DNA of 64,000 nt from IMG/VR virus record IMGVR_UViG_3300032007_001727; one strand, 5' to 3'. A program made the position numbers and the translations under genes. The stretch comes from a virus. Lineage: Duplodnaviria > Caudoviricetes. The notes under the pieces were generated by a model. The model had not been told where the DNA came from, did no database searches, and was given only the letters and a program-made list of their open reading frames with translations. Each line of letters begins with the position of its first letter. Positions within the stretch are counted from its first letter, which is position 1. Shown here in pieces: positions 5,844 to 36,959 of the stretch.

Positions 5844-6434
5844 ATGATGAAAATATTAGGCTATATTGTTTCCGAAAAAAAGATAAAAGGATTGGATTTT
5901 TGTGTTAAACAAGTTGATAATATCGGGCTTGCAGACAGAAGCAAGCCCGTATTAATCGTTGGTTGGGACAAGGCAAAGGAACAAGGGGACTATACCAACA
6001 TTTTAAATAAAAAATTAGGTGATAACTTGTTTTGGACTTTCGGAAAAACAGAAAGTCGCTCAGACTTTGAACTCGATTTGTCTAATTTTTATAATTATAT
6101 ATATAATAATATAATAAATAATATTAAGTATATTAATATTAATATTTTTAAGATAAAATATAATAAAATAAAAAAAATATTATATTATATATTATATTCT
6201 AAAGAAGATAAGACTATTTATATTAATAATGGGATGTTATATATACCATTTAAGGGCGATATTATAGGTGTTTCGTTGAGAATTATGGAATACTGTGGGA
6301 TGAAAGAAGAAAAAATACTTAAGAAATTAACTTCAAATCCACATAATAAAATTTGTGACAACACAAGCAAGTCCATCCTTAAACTTTCAAATCGCCTAGG
6401 AAATAATAAGTACGTTATACCGTACTTAGTATGA
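5844..6434 (+). CDS. Hypothetical phage protein (LIVGW motif; very AT-rich N/I/Y/K middle)
   Basis: 196-aa ORF directly after a promoter. Confidence 0.65.
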   Translation: MMKILGYIVSEKKIKGLDFCVKQVDNIGLADRSKPVLIVGWDKAKEQGDYTNILNKKLGDNLFWTFGKTESRSDFELDLSNFYNYIYNNIINNIKYININIFKIKYNKIKKILYYILYSKEDKTIYINNGMLYIPFKGDIIGVSLRIMEYCGMKEEKILKKLTSNPHNKICDNTSKSILKLSNRLGNNKYVIPYLV

Positions 6435-6449
6435 ATAAAATTTGAAAAA

Positions 6450-6857
6450 ATGACACTAAAAGGTAATATAATAGGAATTTTTATTAAGAAAAATAGAATA
6501 CTTTCATTTTTAGAAACCCTAAAACACAAATATGGTGTCGGATACGATAAAATTTTTGTACATGAAATAGACACCAATAAATACGAATACCTTGTGACCT
6601 TCAAGGTCTTTGACAAGGAAAAATTCATTAAAGAGATACCCGGATGTTCCGTGATGCACGTCAAAAACAAGTGCTTTTTCTCAATAAACGCATTAAATAA
6701 ACTCATTGAAACGGAAAAGGATAACTCAAACCAACCTAATAATGAATATGTTATCGATTGGGATAATTTAAAAAATAAGTTAATTATAACTTCAAATAAT
6801 GAATTATCAATTTCTAATTTGACCAAAATAGACGATTTTTGTTATTTTTTCAAGTAA
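6450..6857 (+). CDS. Hypothetical protein
   Basis: 135-aa co-oriented ORF. Confidence 0.65.
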   Translation: MTLKGNIIGIFIKKNRILSFLETLKHKYGVGYDKIFVHEIDTNKYEYLVTFKVFDKEKFIKEIPGCSVMHVKNKCFFSINALNKLIETEKDNSNQPNNEYVIDWDNLKNKLIITSNNELSISNLTKIDDFCYFFK

Positions 6858-6895
6858 AATAGTTCAATAATTCTTAAAATTTATAGATAATATAC

Positions 6896-6903
6896 TATTT
6901 ATA
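6896..6903 (+). promoter_or_regulatory. Putative phage late-promoter motif TATTTATA (one of >=13 copies)
   Basis: Oriented TATTTAT(A/T/G) close upstream of gene starts. Other copies: 21067, 27739, 29408, 33004, 50717, 51946, 54245, 62718 (+) and 27674-81, 36981-88, 61614-21, 62675-82 (-). Confidence 0.6.
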
Positions 6904-6923
6904 GGAGAAAAAATCTTTATATA

Positions 6924-7184
6924 ATGGGAAAATTCATACTTAAGCATATTGATAACAGAAAACCGCAAGTAACTAGGACTGAAAGTGCTAGCGATTCAAA
7001 TAATAAAATTAATGAAGTTGTTATGACTACAAGTGAAAAAATAGCAATTGCCCAAGAGGTACTTAACGGGCAACCCCAAGCACACAGTGTAAAGAAAGTG
7101 AAAAAGGACAGGGGTCTTATAGAGAGAACGGAGAGTTCAAAGATTGTTCTTACAGAAGATAATAAGGAATTATTGAACGATTAG
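6924..7184 (+). CDS. Hypothetical protein (probable late gene)
   Basis: 86-aa ORF after TATTTATA motif. Confidence 0.65.
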   Translation: MGKFILKHIDNRKPQVTRTESASDSNNKINEVVMTTSEKIAIAQEVLNGQPQAHSVKKVKKDRGLIERTESSKIVLTEDNKELLND

Positions 7185-7191
7185 TATAGAT

Positions 7192-8040
7192 ATGGCAACC
7201 AACGTAAAATATCTTAAAGAGAATAACTTATATGATGCGCACAAGCATTTCATGGAATTGAGTGAAGCATATCAATATTTTCCGGAAGACTTGGAAGAGG
7301 CTGATGACGATATGAACCAAAATCCAATGGATAACCAAGACCCAAACGGAATGGGTGGTGACATGGGTATGCCCCAAGACCAAAACGGAATGGGCGGACC
7401 ACAAGACCCTAATGGCATGGGCGGCGATACGGGTATGCCACAAGACCAAAACGGTATGGGTGGTGACATGGGTATGCCCCAAGATGACCCAAACGGTATG
7501 GGCGATGATATGGGTATGTCTCAACAAGGCGGTCTTGACACCCCTCCAATGGGTGAGATTGAAGACGATGTCCAAAAGGAGGATGAACCTAGTGACACTA
7601 TCGACATAGATGACCTTACCAAGGCGCAAGAAAAGTTGAATGTCAAACAGAACCACGTAGGAAGGGATTTGGTAAAGGTTGACAATAAGATAGAGAAACT
7701 TATTGACACTCTTACCACGTTGCTGCATAAGGTTGATGACAATAACACTGAGATTGAAGCACTCAAGGCCGAGTTCGAGAAGAGAAACCCGACACAGACG
7801 GAGAAGTTGAATCTCCGTTCATTGGATTCTTACCCATTCAGCGTCAAGCCAACGGATTATTGGTCCAAGAAGGCACTTGAGGGTGGTTATGAGGTCTATG
7901 CCGATAATGATGAGCCGACAACGAAGGAATATGTCATCACCAACAATGACGTTGATAATCCTTCGGATGACATAGCAAATACCTTTTTCAACATTGATGA
8001 CGATGATATTCAGACATTATCAAAAATTTTCAACATATGA
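7192..8040 (+). CDS. Acidic protein with Gly/Met/Pro repeats and coiled coil (possible scaffold/assembly protein)
   Basis: QD(P/Q)NGMGG(DMGMP) repeats, followed by a heptad-rich segment. Confidence 0.6.
   Translation: MATNVKYLKENNLYDAHKHFMELSEAYQYFPEDLEEADDDMNQNPMDNQDPNGMGGDMGMPQDQNGMGGPQDPNGMGGDTGMPQDQNGMGGDMGMPQDDPNGMGDDMGMSQQGGLDTPPMGEIEDDVQKEDEPSDTIDIDDLTKAQEKLNVKQNHVGRDLVKVDNKIEKLIDTLTTLLHKVDDNNTEIEALKAEFEKRNPTQTEKLNLRSLDSYPFSVKPTDYWSKKALEGGYEVYADNDEPTTKEYVITNNDVDNPSDDIANTFFNIDDDDIQTLSKIFNI
7336..7520 (+). repeat. Imperfect coding tandem repeat, about 5 copies of QDxNGMGGDMGMP
   Basis: caagacc(c/a)aaacgg(a/t)atggg(t/c)gg units recur directly in the DNA. Confidence 0.85.
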
Positions 8041-8411
8041 GGAAAGTAATACTTAGAGAGGAATCATATAATCATTTGATTAACGAAATAACTTATGGAA
8101 TGGTTGATAGGGCTTATGAAAGGTCTTATCAACTGTTCGATGACTTGTCCACTAGGTTTGACGAGTTCTATTCATCATTGAACGAGGCGTTATACAATTC
8201 AGAAGACGGTAATCCGTATTTAAGTCAAATCAAGGAACTTGCAGACAATATCCGTGATATCCTTATTAAAAAGGATTCACAGCGTGACAAGTTCAACAGA
8301 GAGGCATCAAAGGTCGATTTCCGTAAATTCAACAGAAGCGAGGAATCCAATGAGAATGACATGGATGACTTGGACTTGACTTATTTGCAGAACAAATATC
8401 CAAAGCATTAA
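8037..8411 (+). CDS. Hypothetical protein (putative virion-internal protein, N-terminal K-V-I-L-x-E motif)
   Basis: 124-aa ORF with ATGA overlap on the upstream gene. Confidence 0.65.
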   Translation: MRKVILREESYNHLINEITYGMVDRAYERSYQLFDDLSTRFDEFYSSLNEALYNSEDGNPYLSQIKELADNIRDILIKKDSQRDKFNREASKVDFRKFNRSEESNENDMDDLDLTYLQNKYPKH

Positions 8412-18831: not shown

Positions 18832-21039
18832 ATGGCAAAAATCAATGATGATTTACTGAAATATTTTGATGGCGATGAAATGGCATCAAATGTTTGGCTG
18901 AATAAATATGCAATGAGGGATGAAAACGGTGAATTAATAGAATCGACCCCGGATGACATGCATAGAAGAATGGCAAAGTACTTTGCCGATGTTGAGGAAA
19001 AGTATGAGTTTAACGAAGAGGAAAACGTTAAACTGAAATTGAGTGAATATGGCTACAACAGAGGCAAACTTACCGAAGAAAAAATCTATTCTCTTTTCAA
19101 GGACTTTAAATATATTGTTCCGGGCGGTTCTGTCATGTGTGGTTTAGGCTCACCGCTAGCAATTAGCCTCTCTAATTGCTGGGTAATTGATGGTCCAGGT
19201 GACAGTATAGATGACATCTTTAGGGTTTGCAATGAACAGTCTCAGTTGTTTAAGAGAAGAGGTGGAAACGGGTTCGATATATCGAAGTTGAGACCAAAGG
19301 GTGCGAAGGTAAGCAATTCTGCAAAATATTCCACCGGTGCCGTATCCTTCATGGACTTGTTCAGCAACGTGACAAATACCATCGCCCAAAGCGGAAGAAG
19401 GGGTGCCCTTATGCTTTCAATGCACGTGGAACATCCGGATGCGGAGGAGTTTATTGAGAAGAAGCAAGACCTTTCAAAGGTTACCGGTGCAAATATCTCG
19501 TTGCAGATAGGTGATGACTTTATGAATGCCGTGGAGAATGATGAGGACTTTATTCAGAGGTGGCCAATCACTTGTGAGGTCAACGTTGACCCTAGTTGGG
19601 AATATGACACCTTGTACGAGTCCAAGGATTCGAACGGTAAGACTTGCTATTTCAAGAAGGTAAAGGCGAAGAGGTTGTGGGATAAATTAATCCATTGTGC
19701 TTGGAATACGGCCGAACCCGGCATCATCTTCAAGACAAACCACTATGAATATTCACCGGACGGTGTGTATGATGAATTCCGTGGCAGTTCCACGAATCCG
19801 TGTGGAGAGATTTTTATGCATGAGGATTCTTGCAGACTCATCCACGTAAACCTTTCTTCTTTTATTGATGACGAGTATTCTGAGAATGCAAAGGTGAACG
19901 ACGAGAAGTTGTATGAAGTGTTCTATGAGGCCACTAGGTTAGGTGATGATTTGGTTGATTTGGAAAGGGATGCCATTACAAAGATTCTCAATAAGATTGA
20001 AAAAGACGGTGACAAGAATAATAATGAATATAAACTGTATAGCCGCTTACTTAAGAATACATTAGCCGGAAGAAGGTGCGGCGTTGGATTCTTCGGATTG
20101 GCTGACGCTGTCGCAAAATTGGGCTTTAAGTTTGATTCTGATGAGAGCCTTAAGGCAATTAACCATATGATGAGGATTATGTTCGTTGCAGAAATTGACT
20201 CAGAGATTGACATGTCAATCACAAGGGGTAGTTTCCCGAACTATAATCCGGAATTGGAGAAGGCCGGAAACAGATGGTATAACCACTTGAAGGATGATTT
20301 CAAGCACTTATACGACAGAATGATGAAATATGGCAGGAGAAACGTATCATTCAGTACGGCAGCACCTACCGGTTCTGTTGCGATGCTTGCACACTGCTCT
20401 AGCGGTATAGAACCCATATTTATGCCATTCTACACAAGGAGGGTTAAATGCACGACACCAAACGACAAGGTTGACTTTGTTGACAAGGACGGTGAGAAGT
20501 TCACGGAATATATTACGGTACACCATCCTTTGGAAGAGTGGGCAAAGAACACATTGAACGTCGATACAAGCGAATTGAAGGTAAAGGATTGGCAAGACAT
20601 ATATGAGAAGTCACCTTGGTATAAGTCAACCGCAAACGATATCGATTGGGTAAAACGTGTTAAAATCCAAGCAATATGCCAGTGCTATGTGACACATAGC
20701 ATTTCTAGTTGCGTTGTTAAAGATACATTCATTGAACTTGAAAATGGCGGCTACGCATATATTGATGAGTTATGTGACTTTTCAGCCATAAACGAAGGGG
20801 AATTTAAGGATAACACATCGTTTGAAACATTGGTTAAGACTTGTGACGGAACTAATAATAGGATTAAGTCATTCTACAATAACGGAGTAAAAGATGTGTT
20901 TGAGTTAAAACTTACGAATGGGTTATCAGTCGAGACCACGTCAAATGAACGTTTCATGGTCTATAACGATGAAAAATCAGAATTTGATTGGAAATATCTT
21001 TATGATATTAAAGAGGGTGACATAATAAAAATTCAATAA
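18832..21039 (+). CDS. nrdJ: Class II (B12-dependent) ribonucleotide reductase, N-terminal part fused to an N-intein (intein 20710-21039)
   Basis: SNCWV, RRGA, AEPG, TNPCGE, APTGS, SSGIEP; HSISS|CVVKDT junction; Hint blocks A/B; then a stop codon. Confidence 0.9.
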   Translation: MAKINDDLLKYFDGDEMASNVWLNKYAMRDENGELIESTPDDMHRRMAKYFADVEEKYEFNEEENVKLKLSEYGYNRGKLTEEKIYSLFKDFKYIVPGGSVMCGLGSPLAISLSNCWVIDGPGDSIDDIFRVCNEQSQLFKRRGGNGFDISKLRPKGAKVSNSAKYSTGAVSFMDLFSNVTNTIAQSGRRGALMLSMHVEHPDAEEFIEKKQDLSKVTGANISLQIGDDFMNAVENDEDFIQRWPITCEVNVDPSWEYDTLYESKDSNGKTCYFKKVKAKRLWDKLIHCAWNTAEPGIIFKTNHYEYSPDGVYDEFRGSSTNPCGEIFMHEDSCRLIHVNLSSFIDDEYSENAKVNDEKLYEVFYEATRLGDDLVDLERDAITKILNKIEKDGDKNNNEYKLYSRLLKNTLAGRRCGVGFFGLADAVAKLGFKFDSDESLKAINHMMRIMFVAEIDSEIDMSITRGSFPNYNPELEKAGNRWYNHLKDDFKHLYDRMMKYGRRNVSFSTAAPTGSVAMLAHCSSGIEPIFMPFYTRRVKCTTPNDKVDFVDKDGEKFTEYITVHHPLEEWAKNTLNVDTSELKVKDWQDIYEKSPWYKSTANDIDWVKRVKIQAICQCYVTHSISSCVVKDTFIELENGGYAYIDELCDFSAINEGEFKDNTSFETLVKTCDGTNNRIKSFYNNGVKDVFELKLTNGLSVETTSNERFMVYNDEKSEFDWKYLYDIKEGDIIKIQ

Positions 21040-21051
21040 TTCTTTAAAAAA

Positions 21052-21112
21052 ATTTATCTCATTGTATATTTATATATATAAATAATTTTAATAAATATGC
21101 AATGAGATAAAT
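21052..21112 (+). promoter_or_regulatory. 22-bp hairpin covering the endonuclease translation-initiation region, with TATTTATA in its left arm
   Basis: atttatctcattgtatatttat (21052-73) pairs with ataaatatgcaatgagataaat (21091-112) with one G:U; ends at the ATG. Confidence 0.8.
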
Positions 21113-22339
21113 ATGAATGAAAGTCAGAAAAAGAGGATACAAAAACTAATAGAAATGGGTTTGTATCATGAGCCAAAAATAATAAAGGGCGTATGTAAAT
21201 TATGTGGAAAGGAATATGAATATGACGAGAACAATAAAGTAGTTAGACAATACTTTACTAACGGCTTTTGTTGCAATAAATGTTATCAAGATTCCGGTTT
21301 AAAGTTAATTAATAAAATTAAAACGACACTGACGAATGCAAATATGCCGTTTAATGATGAAAACATCTTAGAAGTTTTTTCAGAGTATCAATCAAATAGA
21401 ACTAAAAAGTGTGCTGACACTTGGAGGAAGACAATGGTTGAGAAATATGGAACAGACTATGCCACCAAGAGAGGAAAAATGGGATGGGATGGCCACAAGA
21501 AGAAATTTTTAATTGAAAACAACATAATTTCAGAAGATGATTTTTCAAAATTAAGTGAGGAGGAAATTGATGACTTATTTATTAGTAACTTCAACAAAAT
21601 AACCAAACATGGTGAACACGTTGTTAATGGTAGAAAAAGTAAATACGGAGAAGATTACAAGAAATCATTCCAAGATGCACTAGTAAAAAGCGTAACCAAC
21701 CTAATGGAGAAGAAATACGGGAAAGAATATTTAGATGGACTATCTGATTCTGAATACCAAGAGGTTTACAATGAATGTTCAACTGAAATAAATTCGAAGA
21801 AGGTTGTAAAGGATAGAATTGAATGGAAGAAGAGTACATTGTTGAACCACGGCTTCGATAAAGATTCATTGGACAAATGCAGTTCAGATGAAATTGAAAA
21901 GTTCTATTCAGAATATTTGTCAAAGAGAAAGACAAAACTTGTTTGTTCCGAAAAGAATGGGTATAAACATTCTGAAAAGGGTTGGTACAATTTTGATAAG
22001 TGGGATAAGTTTTTCTACCGTAGTAGTTGGGAAAAGCGATTATGTGAAGAATTGGACGCTAATTGTGATTTAATTGAAAATGTCATGGTTCCGGAACCAA
22101 TCTATTATAAGTTAAATGGTGTTACACATGCCTATTTTTGTGACTTTGAAATTTTATTTAAAAATGGTTTCAGACTATTCATAGAAGTCAAACCGGAAGG
22201 AAAATTAAAAGAATTAGTAAATGAGTGTAAAATAAATGCGGCAAAGGAAAAATGGGGTGACTCATTTATTGTTGCAACTGAGCATGAAATTTTTTCAAGT
22301 GATTTAAAAAATTTATTAATGAAATATGGAAAAGATTAA
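21113..22339 (+). CDS. Free-standing endonuclease (TnsA-like PD-(D/E)XK) between the split-intein halves
   Basis: N-terminal CKLC...CCNKC zinc motif; C-terminal YRSSWE...Y.CDF....IEVKP...KINAA. Confidence 0.75.
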   Translation: MNESQKKRIQKLIEMGLYHEPKIIKGVCKLCGKEYEYDENNKVVRQYFTNGFCCNKCYQDSGLKLINKIKTTLTNANMPFNDENILEVFSEYQSNRTKKCADTWRKTMVEKYGTDYATKRGKMGWDGHKKKFLIENNIISEDDFSKLSEEEIDDLFISNFNKITKHGEHVVNGRKSKYGEDYKKSFQDALVKSVTNLMEKKYGKEYLDGLSDSEYQEVYNECSTEINSKKVVKDRIEWKKSTLLNHGFDKDSLDKCSSDEIEKFYSEYLSKRKTKLVCSEKNGYKHSEKGWYNFDKWDKFFYRSSWEKRLCEELDANCDLIENVMVPEPIYYKLNGVTHAYFCDFEILFKNGFRLFIEVKPEGKLKELVNECKINAAKEKWGDSFIVATEHEIFSSDLKNLLMKYGKD

Positions 22340-23348
22340 AGAAATTGAGTCTATTTGTCTAAGTGATGAAAGAATACCGTTTGAATTTAGAAAAAATGGT
22401 GACTCTGTGAAAGATTTTCTTGAAACCATTAAGAACAATGGTTTTGTTGTGACGAACAAGGATGTTAAAAGACTCATGAAAATGTATGACACAAAAAACG
22501 AAACATTTTCAATTGTTGAAAACATTTCTTATGTTGGGGTGAAGGAAACCGTTGATTTGGAGGTTGAAAATACTCATAGTTATGTAGCAAATGGAATAGT
22601 TGCCCATAATACAATAAATCTTCCGAACGACGTGAAAGAAAGCGAGGTGGCGGAAATATATAGGGAATCTTGGAAACAAGGACTTAAGGGTATTACCGTA
22701 TATAGGGATGGATGCAGAAGCGGTGTCTTTGTATCAGTTGACAAGAAGGACACACCGAAGAAGGACTTGAACCTTGAACTCATCGAGAGCGGTACCGCAA
22801 AGAGGAGGCCAAAGACATTGGAGGCCAAGATTATACGCTTCAGCAACAAGGGTGAAAAATGGGTAGGCATAATAGGAATGCTAGACGGAAAACCGTATGA
22901 ACTCTTCACCGGAATGCTTGATAAACTGAATATCCCGAATTGGGTTGACAACGGTTCCATCATCAAGAACTATGATGAGATTGAGACTGACGGTGAAGTG
23001 AAGAAGAAATCACGATACGATTTCTGCTATAATGACAAGGACGGGTATAAGGTATGTATCGAAGGTATATCTAGGATATTTAACCCCGAGTTTTGGAATT
23101 ACGGCAAACTAATCAGCGGCTTGTTAAGGCATAATATGCCCATACCTTATATAATAAAGGTGATTTCAACCCTTAAGTTGGATGATTCCTCCATAAACAC
23201 TTGGAAGAACGGTGTTGTTAGGGTTCTCAGAAAGTTTGAAGACTCTGCTGAATTGGAGGGTGAAAAATGCCCGGAATGTGGTGGAAGGCTAGTTAGGGAC
23301 GGCGGATGCATTCACTGCGTTGACTGCGGATACAGTAAGTGTTTATAA
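22326..23348 (+). CDS. nrdJ: C-intein (22326-22610) fused to the NrdJ C-terminal part (TSCPD-like domain, zinc ribbon)
   Basis: VDLEVENTHSYVANGIVAHN|TINLP (blocks F/G, His-Asn, +1 Thr); GLKGITVYRDGCR; CPECG...CVDCGYSKC. Confidence 0.9.
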   Translation: MEKIKEIESICLSDERIPFEFRKNGDSVKDFLETIKNNGFVVTNKDVKRLMKMYDTKNETFSIVENISYVGVKETVDLEVENTHSYVANGIVAHNTINLPNDVKESEVAEIYRESWKQGLKGITVYRDGCRSGVFVSVDKKDTPKKDLNLELIESGTAKRRPKTLEAKIIRFSNKGEKWVGIIGMLDGKPYELFTGMLDKLNIPNWVDNGSIIKNYDEIETDGEVKKKSRYDFCYNDKDGYKVCIEGISRIFNPEFWNYGKLISGLLRHNMPIPYIIKVISTLKLDDSSINTWKNGVVRVLRKFEDSAELEGEKCPECGGRLVRDGGCIHCVDCGYSKCL

Positions 23349-24307: not shown

Positions 24308-24676
24308 ATGTCCGTACAGTATTTTTTGGACAAGCCAATTGTAATTGGCGACTTGAAAAAAGTTGGTTTGGTGGTTGAGGACCACAGAAAAAATATGAAA
24401 CATCATCCGTTCACCGTCTCAAACGGTCAAGATACGGTGGCAATAAGTTCAATTGATGAAAATGGTGAAGGCAATGACGATGAACTCACAATAAAAGAGT
24501 TTGAGGGAAGATTCTCACACGGCGGAGCAAGCGTTATGCTTGAAATATGCGATAAACTTGATTGCAAGTTCATTACAGATGAGGATATTGATGAGTTGTT
24601 TTACACTGATGGTGATACCATTACGAAGGAAATGTACGATGATAGAACTGAGCGGTTCAGAGAATATCTCAAATGA
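24308..24676 (+). CDS. Hypothetical protein
   Basis: 122-aa ORF. Confidence 0.65.
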   Translation: MSVQYFLDKPIVIGDLKKVGLVVEDHRKNMKHHPFTVSNGQDTVAISSIDENGEGNDDELTIKEFEGRFSHGGASVMLEICDKLDCKFITDEDIDELFYTDGDTITKEMYDDRTERFREYLK

Positions 24677-24684
24677 GGTCTATT

Positions 24685-24717
24685 GGAGTTGACAATTGTC
24701 AACTCCTTTTTTTTTTT
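24685..24717 (+). terminator. Intrinsic terminator insulating the CRISPR locus
   Basis: ggagttgac-aatt-gtcaactcc palindrome plus a long T-tract. Confidence 0.85.
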
Positions 24718-24737
24718 GCAAAATAATTGTGATAATA

Positions 24738-24770
24738 TTTGTTTTTTTCAAATTTTTTATATATCTTTGC
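24738..24770 (+). promoter_or_regulatory. Bacteroidota -33/-7 promoter driving ncRNA + CRISPR array + effector
   Basis: TTTG 24738, TATCTTTG 24762. Confidence 0.8.
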
Positions 24771-24774
24771 ACCG

Positions 24775-24954
24775 TTAGTATTAAAACACTAGCCTACCCA
24801 CAGTGTAAGTGGGGACGTTAAGTCCGCGTACTAGGCTGTTGAGGAGTGCTTTAGTGAAAGTATCTTTCTCACGTCTAGGTTTAAACGGAAAGAAAATGTG
24901 CAAGCAGGACTTGCGCAACCATTATTAAAATTTAGTGGAAACATTTGATACAAC
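24775..24954 (+). ncRNA. Structured omegaRNA/tracrRNA-like scaffold with anti-repeat
   Basis: Stems: 24782-90/24845-53, 24791-96/24832-37, cccac/gtggg, ggac/gtcc, gtgaaag/ctttctcac, gcaag/cttgc. 24925-45 is complementary to the repeat 5' half. Ends in gatacaac, like the repeats. Confidence 0.6.
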
Positions 24955-24985
24955 TTATTGATTGTCATTCAATTACGTGTGGTGT

Positions 24986-25454
24986 GGTGTTAATTCCACT
25001 TATCTTAAGGTGGGTTACAACTACATCCCAATACTTTACTACGTGAACTTGGTGTTAATTCCACTGATTGTAAAGTGGATTACAACCTTAGAGAGGAATA
25101 ATAAAAATCCAAAGAAGGTGTTAATTCCACTGATTGTAAGGTGGATTACAACCAACTCCCAAAGAAAATACACAAAAAGTTTGGTCTTAATACCACTTAT
25201 TTTAAGGTGGATTACAACACATGAATTAAGTTCATAGATGGTGTTAATTCCACTCATCTTAAAGTGGATTACAACAATCTAAATGAATATCAACACCCGT
25301 GAAAATGGTGTTAATTCCACTGATTTTAAGGTGGATTACAACCTACCTATCACTCAGAATCAAGTGTTAATTCCACTGATTGTAAGGTGGATTACAACTG
25401 TCATTGGGAATTGCCGGTGTTAATTTCACTTATCTTAAAGTGGATTAATACAAC
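24986..25454 (+). CRISPR. CRISPR array, 8 repeats (36 nt, consensus GGTGTTAATTCCACT(G/T)AT(T/C)(G/T)TAA(G/A)GTGGATTACAAC), 7 spacers
   Basis: Repeats start at 24986, 25051, 25117, 25183, 25240, 25307, 25363 and 25416 (last one 39 nt, degenerate). Spacers are 29, 30, 30, 21, 31, 20 and 17 nt. Confidence 0.93.
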
Positions 25455-25490
25455 AATGTATTTGAGTTACAACAAATTAGATTGTCAAAT

Positions 25491-26993
25491 ATGACAAAAG
25501 AAAAAATCTTACGTGGTATTAAATACCGCTTTTTTCCAACGGAAAAACAAAAAACATACATTAACGCTATGTTTGGTGCAAAACGTTTTTTTTATAATAA
25601 AACGTTAGAAACCTATTTGTCCCTTGAAAAAGAGAACCGTGAAATAAAAGAGTATAATAGCACCCATGAGGATAAGAAGGAACCAATTGCGTATTCTTTG
25701 TTATTAAACAACGGAAAACCAAACCCAAACTATAGCAAAAACTCTCTAATACAAAGGGGATTTGATGGCTTTTATGGTGAAGTAAAAGATTATTCTTGGC
25801 TAAAGAATTATTCATCTACCATATATCAAAATGAGATTGCTAATTTGGGTAATTCTTGGAAGACTTTCTTTAAGTCCCTAAAGACGAAAAATAAAGTAGG
25901 AAAGCCTAAAATGAAAAGAAGGAATTCGGTTAATTCCATAACCTTGCAGAACACATCTTCCTTGAAGGACGGTAAGAATATTATGGATTGGAAGAATAGC
26001 CGAATAAAAACCCCGGGTTTTAATAAATTGGGTTGGTGCAAATGTGAATTGCACAGAAGATTCAAAGGCATGGTCAAGGAGACAACAATATCTAAGGATA
26101 TTGATGGTTCATACTATATTTCCCTAATAGTTGAGAGTGAAGGCTCATACCCACAGCCTAGCGGTGAAGTCACAAAGGAAAATACTATAGGTATTGATTT
26201 TGGCCTAAAGACACTTGCTACCATTTCCAATGCAAACGATGATAGCAATAACTATGAAAAGATTGTTCCATCATATTTTGCAAAGGTATGTGATTTGGAG
26301 AAAAAAATCAATAGGCTCAAGGCAAAGAGAACTCTATGTCAAGCAACACTGACAAGGGAGGGGTGTGAATCCAAGGTCTTAACCATAAAGCAGATGGATA
26401 AGGCTAGAACCAACAATAAAAGGGCTTTCAGTGGATACCATATCACCTATTCAAAAGGTTATGAGGAATATACCAAGAGGATAAACAAACTTACGGTCAG
26501 AATCAATAACATTAAGAAAAACTACACTGGTGAGGAGGCAAGTTCGATTGTAAATCGTGATTGTGCCAATGCAATCTGCGTTGAAACCCTTGATATAAGG
26601 GGCATGTCCATAAGAAATAAGACAAGGGAGGCCGAAGGCAAGAAGATTCCAAATAAAGTCAAAAGGAGAAGGAAAATGGCCCATAAATTAGGACAATTGG
26701 CCATCGGTAGTATAATCTCTCAAATAGAATATGACTCCATAAAGGCAGGAAAACACTTTATAAAGGCCCCGGCAAACTATGCTTCCACAAAGATTTGCAA
26801 TTGCTGTGGTCATAAACTTGAAGACATTGGACTAGATGTTCGGAAATGGGTTTGTCCGGTTTGTGGACAAGAGCATGACCGTGATGTAAATGCCGCAAAA
26901 AATTTGGCAAAGTATGCCTATGCCTTAAAGAATGACATCGATTTGAAGGATATTTACCACAAAGTTGAGGCTGAGGTAATGGCTGAACGATAA
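25491..26993 (+). CDS. tnpB: CRISPR-associated TnpB/Cas12f-like RuvC effector (~500 aa)
   Basis: IKYRFFPTEKQ..FG..RFFYN N-terminus; RuvC-I IGIDFG, RuvC-II CVETL, CNCC...CPVC zinc finger, RuvC-III DRDVNAAKN; 36 nt after the array; no tnpA beside it. Confidence 0.88.
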   Translation: MTKEKILRGIKYRFFPTEKQKTYINAMFGAKRFFYNKTLETYLSLEKENREIKEYNSTHEDKKEPIAYSLLLNNGKPNPNYSKNSLIQRGFDGFYGEVKDYSWLKNYSSTIYQNEIANLGNSWKTFFKSLKTKNKVGKPKMKRRNSVNSITLQNTSSLKDGKNIMDWKNSRIKTPGFNKLGWCKCELHRRFKGMVKETTISKDIDGSYYISLIVESEGSYPQPSGEVTKENTIGIDFGLKTLATISNANDDSNNYEKIVPSYFAKVCDLEKKINRLKAKRTLCQATLTREGCESKVLTIKQMDKARTNNKRAFSGYHITYSKGYEEYTKRINKLTVRINNIKKNYTGEEASSIVNRDCANAICVETLDIRGMSIRNKTREAEGKKIPNKVKRRRKMAHKLGQLAIGSIISQIEYDSIKAGKHFIKAPANYASTKICNCCGHKLEDIGLDVRKWVCPVCGQEHDRDVNAAKNLAKYAYALKNDIDLKDIYHKVEAEVMAER

Positions 26994-27004
26994 GGATAAT
27001 ATGA

Positions 27005-27040
27005 AAAAAAGAGCAACCATAACTGATTGCTCTTATATTT
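27005..27040. terminator. Probable bidirectional terminator between convergent genes
   Basis: A-tract, agagcaa...ttgctct stem, T-rich tail. Confidence 0.6.
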
Positions 27041-27049
27041 TAAATTTTT

Positions 27050-27640
27050 TTAATAATTATGGTTATTATAACCACCATAAAATCTTGGCTGTTCACCAAA
27101 CACAAACTGAACATCCCTTGTTGTGATACGCCCACTCCGTATTAACAAATCAACATCCCTTTCAGTGATGTCATATGGCTCTTTCCCCCCTTTTATCATT
27201 TTCGCCCATTTATCAAGTTTTTCTTCCCTTGACGAACCACTACGACGTGGTTCTTCCTTATATTGATTTTCAAATTCAAAATCAAGACATTTCTCTCTGT
27301 TTGCAGACCTAACTTGCTTAATTGAGTATTCAAGTTGTTCCGGCTCTACTCCGCAAATTCTTCTAACCTTATGTGGGCTACCAAAATCAATATCCGGTGC
27401 AACGTTTACTACCCATTTATCCGAATTGGCAATCTTACCATACCATTTATTTGCCCTAGGATTATATGCGTATTTTAAGGCTAATCGACGATTATAAAAA
27501 TATATATAATCTCCGGATACCATCGCAAACCACCTCTCACTAGAGTCGATATATCCATTTTCCTCTTTTAATAACTTTTTTACAGATTCTTTTACGATTC
27601 TGTGAAGGTCTGACTCTGTCAATCTAATTTTTCTTTTCAT
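27050..27640 (-). CDS. Hypothetical protein with MKRKIRLTESDLHRIVKESV leader (putative virion-internal protein)
   Basis: N-terminus shared with ORF 50757; TATTTATT motif upstream. Confidence 0.7.
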   Translation of the reverse strand: MKRKIRLTESDLHRIVKESVKKLLKEENGYIDSSERWFAMVSGDYIYFYNRRLALKYAYNPRANKWYGKIANSDKWVVNVAPDIDFGSPHKVRRICGVEPEQLEYSIKQVRSANREKCLDFEFENQYKEEPRRSGSSREEKLDKWAKMIKGGKEPYDITERDVDLLIRSGRITTRDVQFVFGEQPRFYGGYNNHNY

Positions 27641-28994: not shown

Positions 28995-29328
28995 ATGACG
29001 AGGGAAGAATTCATAAAGAAAGCCCAAGAGGCTCACGGTGATAAATACGATTATTCGAAAATTCCAAGCGAACTGAAGGCAAGCGACAACGTTGTGATTG
29101 TTTGCCCCATTCATGGTGAATTCACACAGAATGCTAGGACACATTACAGAGGTCACGGTTGTCCAAACTGTAAGGCGGAAAAGACAAGACAATTCTTGAC
29201 ATTGACAACTGAGACCTTTCTGAAGAAGTATCATGATAAATTCGGTGATGAGTATGATACTTCATTGGTTGATTACAAAGATTTTGAGACAAAGGTTAAA
29301 ATGATTTGTCCAATTCATGGCGTATGGG
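28995..29328 (+). pseudogene. 5' fragment of a DUF723-repeat homing endonuclease interrupted by an IS607-like element
   Basis: HGDKYDYS/CPIHG repeats; joins in frame to 31437 (CPIHG-VWE-MTPH) when the element is removed. Confidence 0.85.
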
Positions 29329-29460
29329 ATTAACATCTGCTGAATGAAAAATATTCATTTATATCAAAAAATATTCAAAAATAAGTAAACTTTTTAAAAT
29401 TACGTGATATTTATATATGAATATTAAGATAAATAATAAAAGAATAAGTGAACTTATTTT

Positions 29461-29772
29461 ATGGATAAATTGTTATCACTGAAAGAAACAGAGAAATTGC
29501 TAAATGTAAGTAAATCCACATTACAACGATGGGATAATAGTGGGAAACTTAAAGCAATCAGAACAGAAGGTGGACATAGACGTTATAAGCAATCTGATAT
29601 AGATGAAATATTAAAAAACATAGACGGTGTTACATACGGTAATTTATATGAACATCTTTGTTCAGCGCAATATATAGCCGATGGTTTACATGATGATGAT
29701 GCTGATGCAATACTCGAAATACGAGAAAGAATAGGGCAAAAACTACTAAATCAATATAATAAAATGAGATAA
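29461..29772 (+). CDS. IS607 TnpA-like MerR-HTH protein lacking the serine recombinase domain
   Basis: LNVSKSTLQRWD..GKL...RTEGGHRRY; no YARVSS. Confidence 0.75.
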   Translation: MDKLLSLKETEKLLNVSKSTLQRWDNSGKLKAIRTEGGHRRYKQSDIDEILKNIDGVTYGNLYEHLCSAQYIADGLHDDDADAILEIRERIGQKLLNQYNKMR

Positions 29773-29787
29773 AAATCAAATTGAATA

Positions 29788-31428
29788 ATGCTTATTCAGA
29801 GTAAGTACACAAAGATATTCCATTCAAAGGACTTAACTCGTCAGAAATATGATGAGTTATATGACTTTGCTGTGCTTATTCGAAACCATAAAAACACAGT
29901 ATCACAATACGTCAACGACAATCTCTTACATTTCTTGGAATACAATAAATTTCAATTCCTTAAGGAAATGAGAGAACGTTTCAAGAATGTAATACCAAGT
30001 TCATTTGATGCACAACTCTATACACAAGTATTCACTTGCTATCAGAATAAATTTGATGGAATACAACGCAAACTGATATTTGAAGTAAAAACATTTAAAG
30101 GGTTTGAGTTCTACAAGCGTGATACAAAGAAGAATAAGAAAGGTGACTTAAAGAAAGTAATAGCCGAAAAGAAACAAACACCATTATCTAACTGCCTCAC
30201 TTATCTTGCAAGATACGGAAATGAAAACACAATAGACTATATAAGTAGTAATATAGATGTTTGTGATGAGAAGAAACGTGAGTTCTATAACAACATATTA
30301 AGATGCTGTAATAAATTCGGATTTGAACGGTTGTATCGATTAGCATTGAACAAAAGACAACGTGTTGTTAAGCATTATTCTGAATATCCTATTGAATTCA
30401 AGTCATTAACGTTCAATGGTAGGTGTAGGAAGAAAAGGATAATTGACTACAACAGAAAGTTTGACTCTGTTATCAATTCATTCATAAGCCTTAGTGGTAT
30501 TGGACGTAAATCATTTGATATACCGATTACATTCAACAAAGGTTGGCACGGAAATATGAAGGATTACAGAAAGAAGAATCCCGATTACGAATATACAATC
30601 ACTTTCAATGAGAAAGAACATCAAGTAAACATCCATTTATGCAAGGATGGAGAAAGGTATATTCCCCAAGCCAATGGCAATACAATAGGTATTGATGTCA
30701 ATTGCAAGCATAACTTATTCAGCCTATCAAATGAAGCAACTTACGATTATGATAGAAAACTCGTCAATGATTTCTGTAAATTATCACTTGAAATTGACAA
30801 ACTTAAAGAAAATGATAAAGAATACAAGGTCGGTAAGCGTAAACAGCAGAAACTTGATACTCTCAAATCCAAGATGATTAAGTCTGAGCAGCAACTTATT
30901 GCTGATATGTGCAAGACGTTACAATCGCAAGGTGTTGGGCATATTGTGATGGAAGACCTTGATAATGGTTTCGGTAAGTGCTATGTTAAAGACAAGGATA
31001 ATGAGGATATTAATTACAACAGAAAGGTTAAGTTTCTTGGCTTGAGTAGTCTTAAACAAGAAGTTGAGCATATTGCAAGAAAATATGATATTGCGGTTTC
31101 AACTGTTCAAGCAAGTTATACATCGAAGATGTGTCCTATGTGTGGATGTATTGAGGATGAGAACAGACCAAACCAAGAGACTTTTGAGTGTATTAAATGT
31201 GGACATAAAGATAATGCAGACTTTAATGCTGCAAAGAACATAAGGAACAGAGTGCTCGTAACCGTGTTACAAGATTTGCTCTTAAAACAAAAGGATAATG
31301 GTGCTTTTGAGCCTAAGAAACTTAAACGTGAGAAGGTAAAGGAGGTATTGTTATCGTTTCGAAGAAGCCTACAAAATGTAGGAAGTGAATGTACAGAAAG
31401 TAGTGTGACTACTTTTGACTATGTTTAA
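29788..31428 (+). CDS. tnpB: Large TnpB-family RNA-guided nuclease (546 aa)
   Basis: IGIDVN, VMEDL, YTSKMCPMCG...CIKCG, NADFNAAKNI; long atypical N-terminus. Confidence 0.85.
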   Translation: MLIQSKYTKIFHSKDLTRQKYDELYDFAVLIRNHKNTVSQYVNDNLLHFLEYNKFQFLKEMRERFKNVIPSSFDAQLYTQVFTCYQNKFDGIQRKLIFEVKTFKGFEFYKRDTKKNKKGDLKKVIAEKKQTPLSNCLTYLARYGNENTIDYISSNIDVCDEKKREFYNNILRCCNKFGFERLYRLALNKRQRVVKHYSEYPIEFKSLTFNGRCRKKRIIDYNRKFDSVINSFISLSGIGRKSFDIPITFNKGWHGNMKDYRKKNPDYEYTITFNEKEHQVNIHLCKDGERYIPQANGNTIGIDVNCKHNLFSLSNEATYDYDRKLVNDFCKLSLEIDKLKENDKEYKVGKRKQQKLDTLKSKMIKSEQQLIADMCKTLQSQGVGHIVMEDLDNGFGKCYVKDKDNEDINYNRKVKFLGLSSLKQEVEHIARKYDIAVSTVQASYTSKMCPMCGCIEDENRPNQETFECIKCGHKDNADFNAAKNIRNRVLVTVLQDLLLKQKDNGAFEPKKLKREKVKEVLLSFRRSLQNVGSECTESSVTTFDYV

Positions 31429-32992
31429 TTCTTCGGAAATGACACCGCATGATTTGATGCGTGGAAAGGGGTGCCCGGTTTGCGGCACGGAACAAGGACA
31501 CTTATCAAAGCGTCTTGAACGTGATGAGGTATTGAAGCGGGCGGAAGAGTTGCATGGTGGAAAATATCTCTATGATAGGTTTGTTTATACTAGAATGTGT
31601 GACAAGGGTATAATCACTTGTCCAATTCATGGTGATTTTAAACAGACCATGAGAAAGCATCTATCCGGTAGTGGATGCCCAAAATGCGGCTATGAAAGGA
31701 ATGCAGACACCTTCAGAATACCGATAGATAAAGTCATTGAGAAATGCGAGAAGGTTCACAATGGCAAATATCAATATTTAAAGGATTTTGACTATTTCAA
31801 TAATAAGACTCGTTTGCATATAGTTTGCCCAATTCATGGTGAGTTTTGGCAAGAGGCAATTGCTCACTTTCATGGTCAAGGATGCCCGGAGTGTGGTAGG
31901 GAAGAAGCAGCCCGTAAGTTACGAAAAGATAAAGAGCACATGATAAAAAGGGCAAGAATTGTGCACGGGGACAAATATTCGTATGATAATTTTGAGTATG
32001 TGAATTGGCACACAAAGGGACTTGTAACTTGTCCAAAACACGGTGATTTCTTGGTTACGCCACTTAATCATATTTCAAATAGAAGCGGATGCCCAAAATG
32101 CGCCCACCAAGTGTCAAAGTGGGAGAAAGATGTTGGTGATTTTATCTCATCCTTAGGAATTGAAGTTGAGCATTCCAATAGAAGTATCCTAGGTGGTAAG
32201 GAAATTGACATTTTTCTGCCACAATATAATATTGGTATTGAGTGTGATGGTTTAAGGTGGCACAATGAGTTATACACGAAGAAAAACTATCATTTGGACA
32301 AGACAAACGATTGTGCGGAAAAAGGAGTCAGACTAATTCATATTTTTGAAGATGAATGGAAGGACAAGGATTTTATTTGGAAATCAATGCTAAGGAATAT
32401 CTTTGGTATGGTAACAAATAGGGTTTATGCTAGGAAATGTCAGATTATGGAGGTATCAGCAAAGGATACTAGGGATTTCTTGGAAGGGAACCACATTCAA
32501 GGCTATGCAAACTCAAAATTCAACTATGGCCTATATTATGAGAATGAGTTGGTTTCAATAATGACTTTTGGTATTCCTAGAATTAACCTAGGTGGTAAAA
32601 AAGAACTTGGACACTATGAGTTGGTTAGGTTCTGTAATAGAATAAATACAAATGTGATTGGAGGGGCAAGTAAATTATTTTCTCATTTCGTAAAACTTAA
32701 CAATCCGGATGAAATTGTATCATACAGTGACAAGAGGTGGTCGCTTGGAAACTTGTATCAGACCTTAGGTTTTGAAAACACGCACGATTCAAAGCCGAAT
32801 TACTTCTATGTTTATAACTTTAAAAGGATGAATAGGTTCAGATTCCGCAAGTCATTGTTGATAAAGGAAGGTTTTGACGGTAACAAGACAGAACATGACA
32901 TAATGCTAGAGAGAGGAATATTCCGGATATATGATTGCGGAACCAAAGTTTGGAAATGGAAAAATATTCCAAGCGAACTGAAGGCAAATTAA
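31421..32992 (+). CDS. 3' part of the interrupted homing endonuclease: zinc repeats, PD-(D/E)XK domain and C-terminal GNAT/Mom-like (Hef-like) domain
   Basis: CPIHG repeats; EIDIFLP...IECDGLRWH; NHIQG...ELVRFC...GGASKL...SYSDKRWS.G.LY..LGF. Confidence 0.75.
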   Translation: MFNSSEMTPHDLMRGKGCPVCGTEQGHLSKRLERDEVLKRAEELHGGKYLYDRFVYTRMCDKGIITCPIHGDFKQTMRKHLSGSGCPKCGYERNADTFRIPIDKVIEKCEKVHNGKYQYLKDFDYFNNKTRLHIVCPIHGEFWQEAIAHFHGQGCPECGREEAARKLRKDKEHMIKRARIVHGDKYSYDNFEYVNWHTKGLVTCPKHGDFLVTPLNHISNRSGCPKCAHQVSKWEKDVGDFISSLGIEVEHSNRSILGGKEIDIFLPQYNIGIECDGLRWHNELYTKKNYHLDKTNDCAEKGVRLIHIFEDEWKDKDFIWKSMLRNIFGMVTNRVYARKCQIMEVSAKDTRDFLEGNHIQGYANSKFNYGLYYENELVSIMTFGIPRINLGGKKELGHYELVRFCNRINTNVIGGASKLFSHFVKLNNPDEIVSYSDKRWSLGNLYQTLGFENTHDSKPNYFYVYNFKRMNRFRFRKSLLIKEGFDGNKTEHDIMLERGIFRIYDCGTKVWKWKNIPSELKAN

Positions 32993-35630: not shown

Positions 35631-36959
35631 TTACTCATCTTCGTTTTTTGACTTTTCTTTGTTGGCATCATCTTGTGGAAGTTCTCCACTTCTTTGTTTC
35701 AATACCTTGTCAGAATAATTGTTAAGCCTAGTTCTAGTATCCTTATTGCGCATTGTCTCAAGTTCACCTTTACTGTACCAATTGCTTTTATTTCCCAATG
35801 ACATCACTCGCTTCATTTCAGACGTTGTGAAAAGATTCTTAAGACCGTTTGCTGCGACAACACCGTGATACCTTACATATATGGTATACTGTTTCCCGGT
35901 TTTGTTTTGGTTGAAACATACACCACACCTATCACATGTGGATTCGTCACTCTTGCAAGGACACTTATAAAAGTATTCAATCCCACCGTTTTTAAGTTGC
36001 TTTTGACCCAATATGGGCTGTCCGTTTTTAACTTGGTCACCACCGGTCAAGTTATCATATGTCTCATCATCGACTGCCTTAAACTCTCTAGGCAAATCGC
36101 CTCTCTCGTTGCCGTTCCCGTGGTGTGAGTAGTTAATGGCAATATTATCTGAGGCTTTTGAGAAGTCAAGGTTCCTAGCAGTATAGGCATGTGAGTTTAT
36201 TTGATACTTCATTTTCATCTTTTTGGCGAATTTTGACCACAAGTCAACAGCCAACTGACAATGGAAATCACCACTCTCGTTGAGTCTTATTTCAGTTATC
36301 TTGTTCTCGGAACACTGTACCCTCAGCAATCTTTTCTGTTCATCCGTCATCTTACCACCCAACTTATAATTCCACTTTTCCAACTCTTGTCTATACAAGT
36401 TCTCAGAATAGGCATTTCCAAGTTGTATGTACATTTCAAGCAACCTAAAGAAGTCTTTATATGGTTTTTTGTTTCCGTGTTGATACTGCTGAAGCATTTG
36501 AGTGTGTACCAAGTCTCGTTTGAAGTTATTGTTCAATACTGAACCTTGGTCAATTCTTGAATATTGGTTTTCATCCTTCATTGCATAGCAAGCACCGTTT
36601 GTTATCTTGCATAGCCCAAGAAAATAGGATGGACACATTAAGGCCGAGGACATATTGACAATAAGAACATTTGCCGGAAGTTTCTTGTTTCCGGCAGAGA
36701 ACATGTTTTTAGGTATCTGCATAAAATCACCCTTTGGTTTTAACTTGTTCATCTGTTTTTGCTTTTCACGGGTCATATCATATATTTTTTCGGATAATTC
36801 GCCGAACACCTCTTGATATAACTCCCTCTGCTTTTTGTCAATTGCCTTCCAAATAGCCTTCATGTTCGTACCATTTGTATTTCCCCTTTTTAGGGCAACA
36901 TTTTCGGCTTCAGCCAATATTAAAGCATTATATTGTTTATTTGTGATGCTGATTCTCAT
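35631..36959 (-). CDS. GP88-like cysteine-rich phage protein
   Basis: GNKKLP...CPS....C.....CYA, IRLNESGDF, AYT, CPC...C..C..C. Confidence 0.6.
   Translation of the reverse strand: MRISITNKQYNALILAEAENVALKRGNTNGTNMKAIWKAIDKKQRELYQEVFGELSEKIYDMTREKQKQMNKLKPKGDFMQIPKNMFSAGNKKLPANVLIVNMSSALMCPSYFLGLCKITNGACYAMKDENQYSRIDQGSVLNNNFKRDLVHTQMLQQYQHGNKKPYKDFFRLLEMYIQLGNAYSENLYRQELEKWNYKLGGKMTDEQKRLLRVQCSENKITEIRLNESGDFHCQLAVDLWSKFAKKMKMKYQINSHAYTARNLDFSKASDNIAINYSHHGNGNERGDLPREFKAVDDETYDNLTGGDQVKNGQPILGQKQLKNGGIEYFYKCPCKSDESTCDRCGVCFNQNKTGKQYTIYVRYHGVVAANGLKNLFTTSEMKRVMSLGNKSNWYSKGELETMRNKDTRTRLNNYSDKVLKQRSGELPQDDANKEKSKNEDE

Follow-up and report, generated by a model that had tools for sequence, protein, structure and literature searches.

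A rare lineage of array-linked TnpB-family nucleases in phages, with a scaffold RNA homologous to transposon omegaRNA

The subject of this study is an operon (24738-27034, + strand) in a stretch of 64,000 nt, hereafter the window, from the IMG/VR virus record IMGVR_UViG_3300032007_001727 (Duplodnaviria; Caudoviricetes), a contig of 107 kb with a CheckV completeness of 42%. From promoter to terminator, the operon consists of a structured RNA of ~180 nt (the scaffold), eight 36-nt CRISPR repeats, and a gene for a 500-aa TnpB-family protein, P0001 (Table 1). We read the operon, with a probability of roughly 0.7, as a phage-encoded RNA-guided DNA nuclease system of the TranC or type V-U* kind that is predicted to be working. 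The initial annotation, made from the sequence alone, had proposed a domesticated TnpB turned multi-guide, array-linked effector near the TnpB-to-Cas12 transition, and the array-linked clade and omegaRNA-derived scaffold described here support that proposal. Its further suggestion of a possibly undescribed kind of system is not supported, since array-linked, TnpB-sized effectors with an omegaRNA-derived trans-activating CRISPR RNA (tracrRNA) have already been published (PMC10691335; TranC). We regard the operon as a new and rare lineage within a known kind of system, a placement for which published clades, LaTranC excepted, were compared by description only.

P0001 is a member of the TnpB superfamily, as seen from its domain order of helix-turn-helix (HTH)/WED, RuvC, and TNB zinc ribbon. 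The three RuvC catalytic residues that had been noticed earlier (D236, E365, and D463/D465) align with the TnpB motifs, and both this triad and the four cysteines of the zinc ribbon (C436, C439, C455, and C458; CxxC...CxxC) are invariant across 11 clade members. The Pfam families HTH_OrfB_IS605 and Cas12f1-like_TNB scored above their cut-offs, as did the NCBIfam model guided_TnpB (199 bits; cut-off 100); no NCBIfam Cas12 subtype model reached its cut-off, the Cas12f2 model gave no match, and the PADLOC models for Cas12u4 and Cas12f matched at 133 and 124 bits, respectively. Among proteins of solved structure, the best sequence match was ISDra2 TnpB (E = 8e-28), followed by matches confined to the C-terminal part for Cas12n (9j09; 6e-14) and LaTranC (1e-10, 100 residues), and solved Cas12f chains reached only E = 0.2. 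For an AlphaFold2 model of P0001 (predicted local distance difference test score 87.2; predicted template modelling score 0.80), Foldseek returned ISDra2 and ISFba1 TnpB as closest (target-normalised TM-scores 0.75-0.86), with AsCas12f chains at 0.56-0.61 and LaTranC at 0.51-0.53. The window also carries an ordinary TnpB (52886-54196, + strand; 436 aa; IS200_TnpB 368 bits; 22% identical to P0001), and relative to it the three reported insertions are indeed present, at residues ~43-97, ~277-330, and 375-394, the last being basic.

Relatives of P0001 are few. A search of 5.8 billion clusters returned ten proteins of 486-514 aa at 45-58% identity, followed by a sharp fall to ordinary TnpBs at 30% or less. 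Two deeper members, P0123 (42%) and P0124 (34%), emerged when 1.84 billion representatives were searched with HMMER, after which the best remaining match had E = 1e-37. Among these representative proteins, about four clusters make up the clade, and metagenomes of rumen and gut are the only sources of its known members. A maximum-likelihood tree that included 47 ordinary TnpBs (quick search, no bootstraps, midpoint root) placed all 13 proteins in one long-stemmed clade among them (Shimodaira-Hasegawa-like approximate likelihood ratio test, 100). No clade member was gained from profile scans of IMG/VR and JGI metagenomes, where ordinary TnpBs at 23-29% identity dominated; a single-sequence search of IMG/VR for the locus returned nothing, and the unit had no match at the DNA level among 50,697 phage records.

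We then considered the loci of the relatives (L001-L009, L175, L176, and L194-L196). All eight relatives with readable flanks, which are 34-58% identical to P0001 and include P0006, P0007, P0008, P0010, P0012, P0123, and P0124, have an array of their own. The outcome named in the initial annotation as a refutation, homologues in ordinary insertion sequence (IS) elements without arrays, was therefore not observed. Their arrays have 36-nt repeats and spacers mostly of 29-31 nt (a few within 17-32 nt), and no spacer is common to two loci. A difference between the arrays of L194 and L195 that might have been taken for spacer turnover was rejected, as it reflects an assembly gap of Ns. The same structured RNA is found wherever the sequence extends to the scaffold position; in L196 the contig end falls inside the first repeat. 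Every genomic context of the clade that could be judged is that of a phage, for instance that of L001, where the contig of 422 kb includes DnaB, NrdD, and a T4 gp13-like gene. The position of the unit is also syntenic: the gp13-like gene after it shows ~81% identity in both L001 and L004, and the preceding gene shows 61% in L175.

Several side observations were made in these contigs. In L194, a terminase gene upstream marks the contig as phage, and a dense tRNA-like cluster with a repeated T-arm (GGxTCGAAxCC) lies directly after the P0124 array (5950-7750, - strand). In L176, a 66-aa open reading frame (ORF) with a match to Y1 TnpA (1819-2019, + strand) lies ~170 nt downstream of the P0008 gene and may be an IS remnant or a separate insertion. 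In L002, an ordinary 375-aa tnpB (3164-4291, + strand) lies 1.7 kb upstream of the P0012 gene on the same strand, so that both forms occur on one contig.

Two gene orders exist within the clade, and they fall in sister subclades of the tree. L194 and L196 follow the transposon order of effector, scaffold, and array, and the L196 scaffold begins directly after the effector stop codon; in the subgroup of the window, the effector is preceded by both scaffold and array. The downstream arrangement is probably ancestral, judging from the comparison with ordinary TnpB only. We consider the upstream, co-transcribed arrangement an unusual variant, because the array is downstream in nearly every conserved association of Cas12 with an array (PMC10691335).

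The structured RNA that had been reported folds better than shuffled sequences (minimum free energy -52.5 kcal/mol; z = -3.59; none of 200 shuffles equalled it). From its 5' end it comprises hairpin S1, an invariant CCUACC, hairpin S2 with a UGUA loop, GUUAAGUCC, and a variable long hairpin, followed by an A-rich linker, stem D, a terminal repeat-like hairpin, and a tail ending in ACAAC. Comparison of four scaffolds revealed compensatory changes in 12 of 21 helix pairs. When ten RNAs were aligned, 92.5% of the cells were paired, as against ~40% with the partners slid, and double changes occurred in 19 of the 21 pairs; because the alignment had been fitted to the model, these figures are biased towards the structure. 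Rfam holds no family for the scaffold, and a scan of IMG/VR and species genomes for a 17-nt scaffold motif gave only chance matches in coding DNA.

A covariance model, R1, was built from the four scaffolds. Beyond its own members, it gave weak matches in nine ordinary phage tnpB loci (E 0.02-0.35 on 61 kb), all of them on the gene strand and at, or at most ~40 nt from, the end of the tnpB match; it also matched L196 right after the effector stop codon. We accept homology despite the weak E-values because chance is very unlikely to produce such agreement in position, and on this basis the scaffold is taken as homologous to the omegaRNA that ordinary phage tnpB genes have at their 3' ends. The order of elements common to scaffolds and ordinary omegaRNAs is S1, CUACC, S2, GAAAGUUAAGCC, GGACU, A-rich linker, stem D, and terminal hairpin. 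Downstream of the ordinary TnpB at 52886 the model found no match, i.e., the RNA there is not of the R1 scaffold type. The scaffold would serve as a tracrRNA.

Examination of the locus bore out every element listed in the initial annotation, from the host-type promoter, here assigned to the Bacteroidota type, to the start of the effector gene a short distance after the array (Table 1). The terminator of the upstream gene forms the left border of the unit. The promoter does not contain a sigma-70 -35/-10 pair; its pattern occurs eight times in the window (0.6 expected by chance), in every case upstream of a gene and on the + strand, and the same motif stands ahead of the scaffold in L001, L002, L175, and L194. 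It is the sole recognisable promoter for scaffold, array, and effector, and since the three lie on the same strand with no second promoter or terminator in between, they are most likely expressed as one transcript. Only 56 nt, terminator included, separate the stop codon from the next gene, too few for a 3' omegaRNA, and R1 gave no match at the 3' end of the effector gene. As stated before, no tnpA lies beside the unit; neither are there flanking IS ends. No second scaffold or array was found in the 107-kb record, where the unit is present as a single copy. The reported absence of cas1 and cas2 from the window extends to this whole record (~42% of the phage genome), in which Pfam searches for Cas1 and Cas2 were negative with control genomes positive. 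The description of the unit as self-contained is too strong, however, as nothing in the locus accounts for spacer acquisition.

How the scaffold might be joined to the array-derived guides is suggested by its comparison with ordinary omegaRNAs. All of these end in GUAG(C/U)UCAC and diverge immediately beyond, which fixes the boundary between scaffold and guide. In seven ordinary omegaRNAs, nucleotides -6 to -3 (GCUC or GUUC) are complementary to GAGC in the loop of S2; five array-linked loci have UGUA in this loop and, as its complement, UACA at nucleotides -6 to -3 of the repeat, ahead of the spacer. All four pairs between loop and tail have thus changed together between the two classes. The offset matches that of ISDra2, in which nucleotides -5 to -3 form a pseudoknot clamped by two domains, WED and RuvC (PMC10097598). 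Because loop and tail have co-changed at the offset known from ISDra2, we propose that the pseudoknot would now form in trans, from the scaffold to the repeat tail, with the CRISPR RNA (crRNA) keeping the whole terminal hairpin. Duplex folding and helix listing revealed no collinear anti-repeat site in the scaffold that is conserved across loci. Two other candidate pairings were also considered: a pseudoknot from GUCC to the loop of stem D was dropped, as it was unsupported by L194 and L002, and although every locus would allow CUACC to pair with the G-rich 3' arm of its repeat, the register shifts and we did not rely on this pairing.

The eight repeats of the window end at positions 25021, 25086, 25152, 25218, 25275, 25342, 25398, and 25454, and enclose spacers of 29, 30, 30, 21, 31, 20, and 17 nt. 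The count of eight given earlier holds, with the qualifications that the last repeat is degenerate, that some repeats carry up to 7 mismatches to the consensus, and that the tail of a partial ninth follows the array. The repeats are palindromic, and around the inner hairpin their outer stem covaries between loci (GUUGU/ACAAC vs. GCUGU/ACAGC). The 3' end of the scaffold is itself repeat-like, with a hairpin and then ACAAC, after which 31 nt lead to repeat 1. This stretch, which we refer to as 'spacer 0', may be a fixed guide in cis, like the guide of a transposon. In addition, the array is bracketed by an imperfect duplication, in that 24943-24967 (the junction of scaffold end and spacer 0) resembles 25460-25487, with a local alignment score of 28 compared to 15.6 ± 2.6 in shuffles, one of 2000 of which reached 28. 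Together, the bracketing duplication and the repeat-like scaffold end fit an array that grew by duplication of the end of an omegaRNA.

A model of how the system would work follows these features. The single transcript would be cut into the tracrRNA-like scaffold and repeat-spacer crRNAs, each crRNA retaining the repeat hairpin (equivalent to the last omegaRNA stem) and a tail ending in UACA-AC. Nucleotides -6 to -3 of this tail would pair in trans with the UGUA loop of S2 and so rebuild the guide-adjacent pseudoknot that TnpB and Cas12 enzymes clamp. The complex would then locate spacer-matching DNA beside a target-adjacent or protospacer-adjacent motif, and RuvC would cut it. The likeliest targets would be rival phages or other mobile DNA within the shared host. 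Adaptation genes being absent from the locus, the gain of spacers would depend on Cas1-Cas2 of the host or on recombination.

A number of observations weigh against a working multi-guide nuclease. The array of the window looks partly decayed, three of its spacers being short (21, 20, and 17 nt) and several repeats degenerate. No protospacers were detected in IMG/VR for the four spacers scanned, none were found in the 107 kb of the phage itself, and the array matched 50,697 phage records only through chance phiX-type matches (E ≥ 0.01). The proposed trans pseudoknot has only 4 bp in two sequence states, and represents in effect one evolutionary change. Palindromic repeats, for which a 'condensed', tracr-independent route has been proposed (PMC10097598), could provide their own pairing partner and make the scaffold dispensable for array guides. 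Finally, the pairing statistics of the ten RNAs carry the bias of their alignment stated above.

The signs of decay and the negative target searches would also be expected of a relic array that no longer yields working guides, the intact TnpB being kept for another use, e.g., with the scaffold and a fixed spacer 0, a possibility for which the repeat-like scaffold end and the 31-nt guide-like stretch behind it also speak. We consider this improbable. The arrays of relatives are regular and have different spacers, which implies turnover, and the promoter, the scaffold helices, and the repeat hairpin have been kept across 34-58% protein identity. Moreover, the spacers of 17-21 nt could still work, because TnpB needs only ~16 nt of guide (PMC10097598).

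A second alternative concerns what the guides do rather than whether they work. Spacer 2 matches the window at 8052-8064 (+ strand) over 13 nt from its first base, and over 18 of its first 20 nt (8052-8071), at the start of the gene 8037-8411, a match equalled in 5 of 300 shuffles; the first 12 nt of spacer 7 match 35803-35792 (- strand) inside the gene 35631-36959, which 1 of 300 shuffles equalled. For the remaining five spacers, matches to the phage's own genome were at chance level. Partial-match guides of some Cas9 and Cas12 enzymes, and TldR proteins, direct binding without cutting, and so these two spacers could be seed-only regulatory guides, the 12-13-nt pairing with the phage's own genes serving to bind and silence them or to autoregulate. 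They could also simply be spacers taken from the genes of related phages, which would yield the same partial matches. The 5' flanks of the two sites have no common motif, the matches were assessed in 107 kb of the genome only, and the RuvC triad is intact and invariant, unlike in TldR or binders of the Cas12m/Cas12c type. Regulation or self-targeting in place of cutting is accordingly, in our estimate, quite improbable. Least credible of all is a still-mobile IS200/IS605-type element that uses several guides for homing or retention at several sites rather than for defence or competition: although the effector is closest to IS200/IS605 TnpB, and a Y1 TnpA fragment and an ordinary tnpB lie near relatives (L176 and L002), the unit of the window has neither tnpA nor IS ends, is present once in the 107-kb record, and occupies a syntenic position in related phages, where spacers differ while flanks stay alike.

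The preferred reading of a working nuclease system also leaves room for a more specific proposal on the guide RNA, which we offer as a tentative and rather unlikely one. This lineage might have split its guide RNA elsewhere than did Cas12f and LaTranC, so that both routes from omegaRNA to CRISPR, 'split' and 'condensed', would be combined in one locus: the crRNA would keep the whole last hairpin and find its pseudoknot partner in cis in the palindromic repeat, the scaffold would act mainly for spacer 0 or through the 4-bp trans pseudoknot, and spacers 2 and 7 would be regulatory.

The operon was compared with four kinds of known systems. TranC proteins were introduced as transposon-CRISPR intermediates (Jin et al., Cell 2025, doi 10.1016/j.cell.2025.09.004, as described in PMC13565253 and PMC13639567), with LaTranC (PDB 9jfo/9jfq) as the solved example, and phage-borne members such as CauTranC9 have been reported in a study that characterised only systems with the nuclease upstream of the array (bioRxiv 10.64898/2026.03.27.714800). 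Like these, P0001 is a TnpB-sized, TnpB-like effector with a short adjoining array and no adaptation genes, and its helper RNA descends, by R1 homology, from a transposon guide RNA; the reported repeats of 32-38 nt and arrays of 3-20 repeats accommodate the 36 nt and eight repeats seen here. In contrast to TranC, scaffold and array lie upstream in the subgroup of the window and are probably co-transcribed with the effector, similarity to LaTranC is weak (the sequence match quoted above covers the C-terminal 100 residues only, and TM-scores are ~0.45-0.53), and the palindromic repeats keep the whole last omegaRNA hairpin, which would leave only the ~4-bp pseudoknot to form in trans. The 40 branches of V-U* (V-U6 to V-U45; Altae-Tran et al., PNAS 2023, PMC10691335), many of them known from metagenomes only and with arrays thought to arise by duplication of omegaRNA segments (PMC10691335), are likewise TnpB-derived clades with stable array linkage and without cas1, cas2, and cas4 (PMC10691335). 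Their array is downstream in almost all cases (PMC10691335), whereas here it is upstream in the crown subgroup and downstream only in L194 and L196. With array linkage throughout the clade and an omegaRNA-derived helper RNA, the operon has the architecture of TranC and V-U*, and it would be predicted to cut DNA under the guidance of both CRISPR RNA and reRNA.

Ordinary IS200/IS605 TnpB (ISDra2; PDB 8h1j/8exa) is the best match in sequence and fold, with the same triad and zinc ribbon, and in the ordinary phage copies (L010-L012, L019, L026, L038, and L052) the omegaRNA elements follow the same order as in the scaffold. The effector of the window, however, carries three insertions and is ~100 residues longer, its RNA does not overlap the 3' end of the gene, an array replaces the single guide, the S2 loop and tail read UGUA:UACA instead of GAGC:GCUC, and there is no TnpA, no IS end, and no further copy, so that it is not a transposon-borne TnpB. 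Cas12f (V-F) and Cas12n (V-U4) are also miniature RuvC effectors that use a tracrRNA and a crRNA, and PADLOC models for them match P0001, but the generic TnpB model scores higher (199 vs. 133/124 bits). Cas12f repeats form two repeat:anti-repeat helices with their tracrRNA, and the scaffold of the window has no collinear anti-repeat; with this and the weak similarity, P0001 is not a Cas12f. Nor is the operon a complete adaptive type V locus, as the 107-kb record contains no adaptation module.

Table 1. Features of the operon and its borders, with positions in the window
Feature	Position	Strand	Details or evidence
Intrinsic terminator of the upstream gene (24308-24676)	hairpin 24685-24706, feature to 24716	+	9-bp stem with 5 G-C pairs, then T10
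Bacteroidota-type promoter	24738-24770	+	TTTG, N20, TATCTTTGC; pattern TTTG-N20-TAnnTTTGC
omegaRNA-derived scaffold, tracrRNA-like	24776-24954	+	fold z, helix covariation, covariance model R1
'Spacer 0', 31 nt, between the ACAAC tail of the scaffold and repeat 1	24955-24985	+	direct sequence reading
CRISPR array, 8 repeats of 36 nt, 7 spacers	24986-25454	+	consensus GGTGTTAATTCCACTGATTGTAAGGTGGATTACAAC
Degenerate partial repeat tail and imperfect junction copy, up to the start codon	25457-25490	+	
TnpB-family RuvC nuclease, 500 aa	25491-26993	+	ATG at 25491, 36 nt past the last repeat
Bidirectional terminator hairpin	27009-27034	both	common to the convergent gene 27050-27640 (- strand)

Three further features of the window were recorded. 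A third TnpB-like gene (29788-31428, + strand) encodes a 546-aa protein that, apart from a clear TNB zinc ribbon, has diverged strongly (79 bits with guided_TnpB, under the cut-off; weak Cas12f2 and Cas12u3 matches), and the gene has no adjoining array. Directly ahead of it lies a gene for a 103-aa HTH protein of the MerR/excisionase type that resembles the N terminus of IS607 transposase (29461-29772), and the 546-aa protein could be an HTH-associated TnpB derivative. The gene for the large subunit of ribonucleotide reductase (18832-23348, + strand) appears interrupted: ORF 18832-21039 ends in the N-terminal splicing region of an intein, ORF 21113-22339 has a TnsA-like endonuclease domain, and ORF 22326-23348 contains the C-terminal region of the intein and the end of the reductase barrel. 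Proteins with DUF723 repeats are encoded at 28995-29333 and 31415-32992 (+ strand) in the window, where they flank the region, and at 7632-8588 in L001; they directly follow the effector in L001 and L004. The 525-aa member of these proteins shows weak REase_MTES_1575 and Mom-like matches.

How transposon nucleases turned into CRISPR effectors is now being actively studied, and very small genome editors are of practical interest here. To this field we add the homology of scaffold and omegaRNA, the presence of two gene orders in one clade, and the complementarity between the S2 loop and the repeat tail. The current picture of type V origins is unchanged by these findings. The clade is useful because an omegaRNA of ancestral type can still be aligned with the derived scaffold and because both gene orders survive in it, and since the predicted pairing of helper RNA and crRNA has been mapped base by base, the model of a split guide RNA is directly testable.

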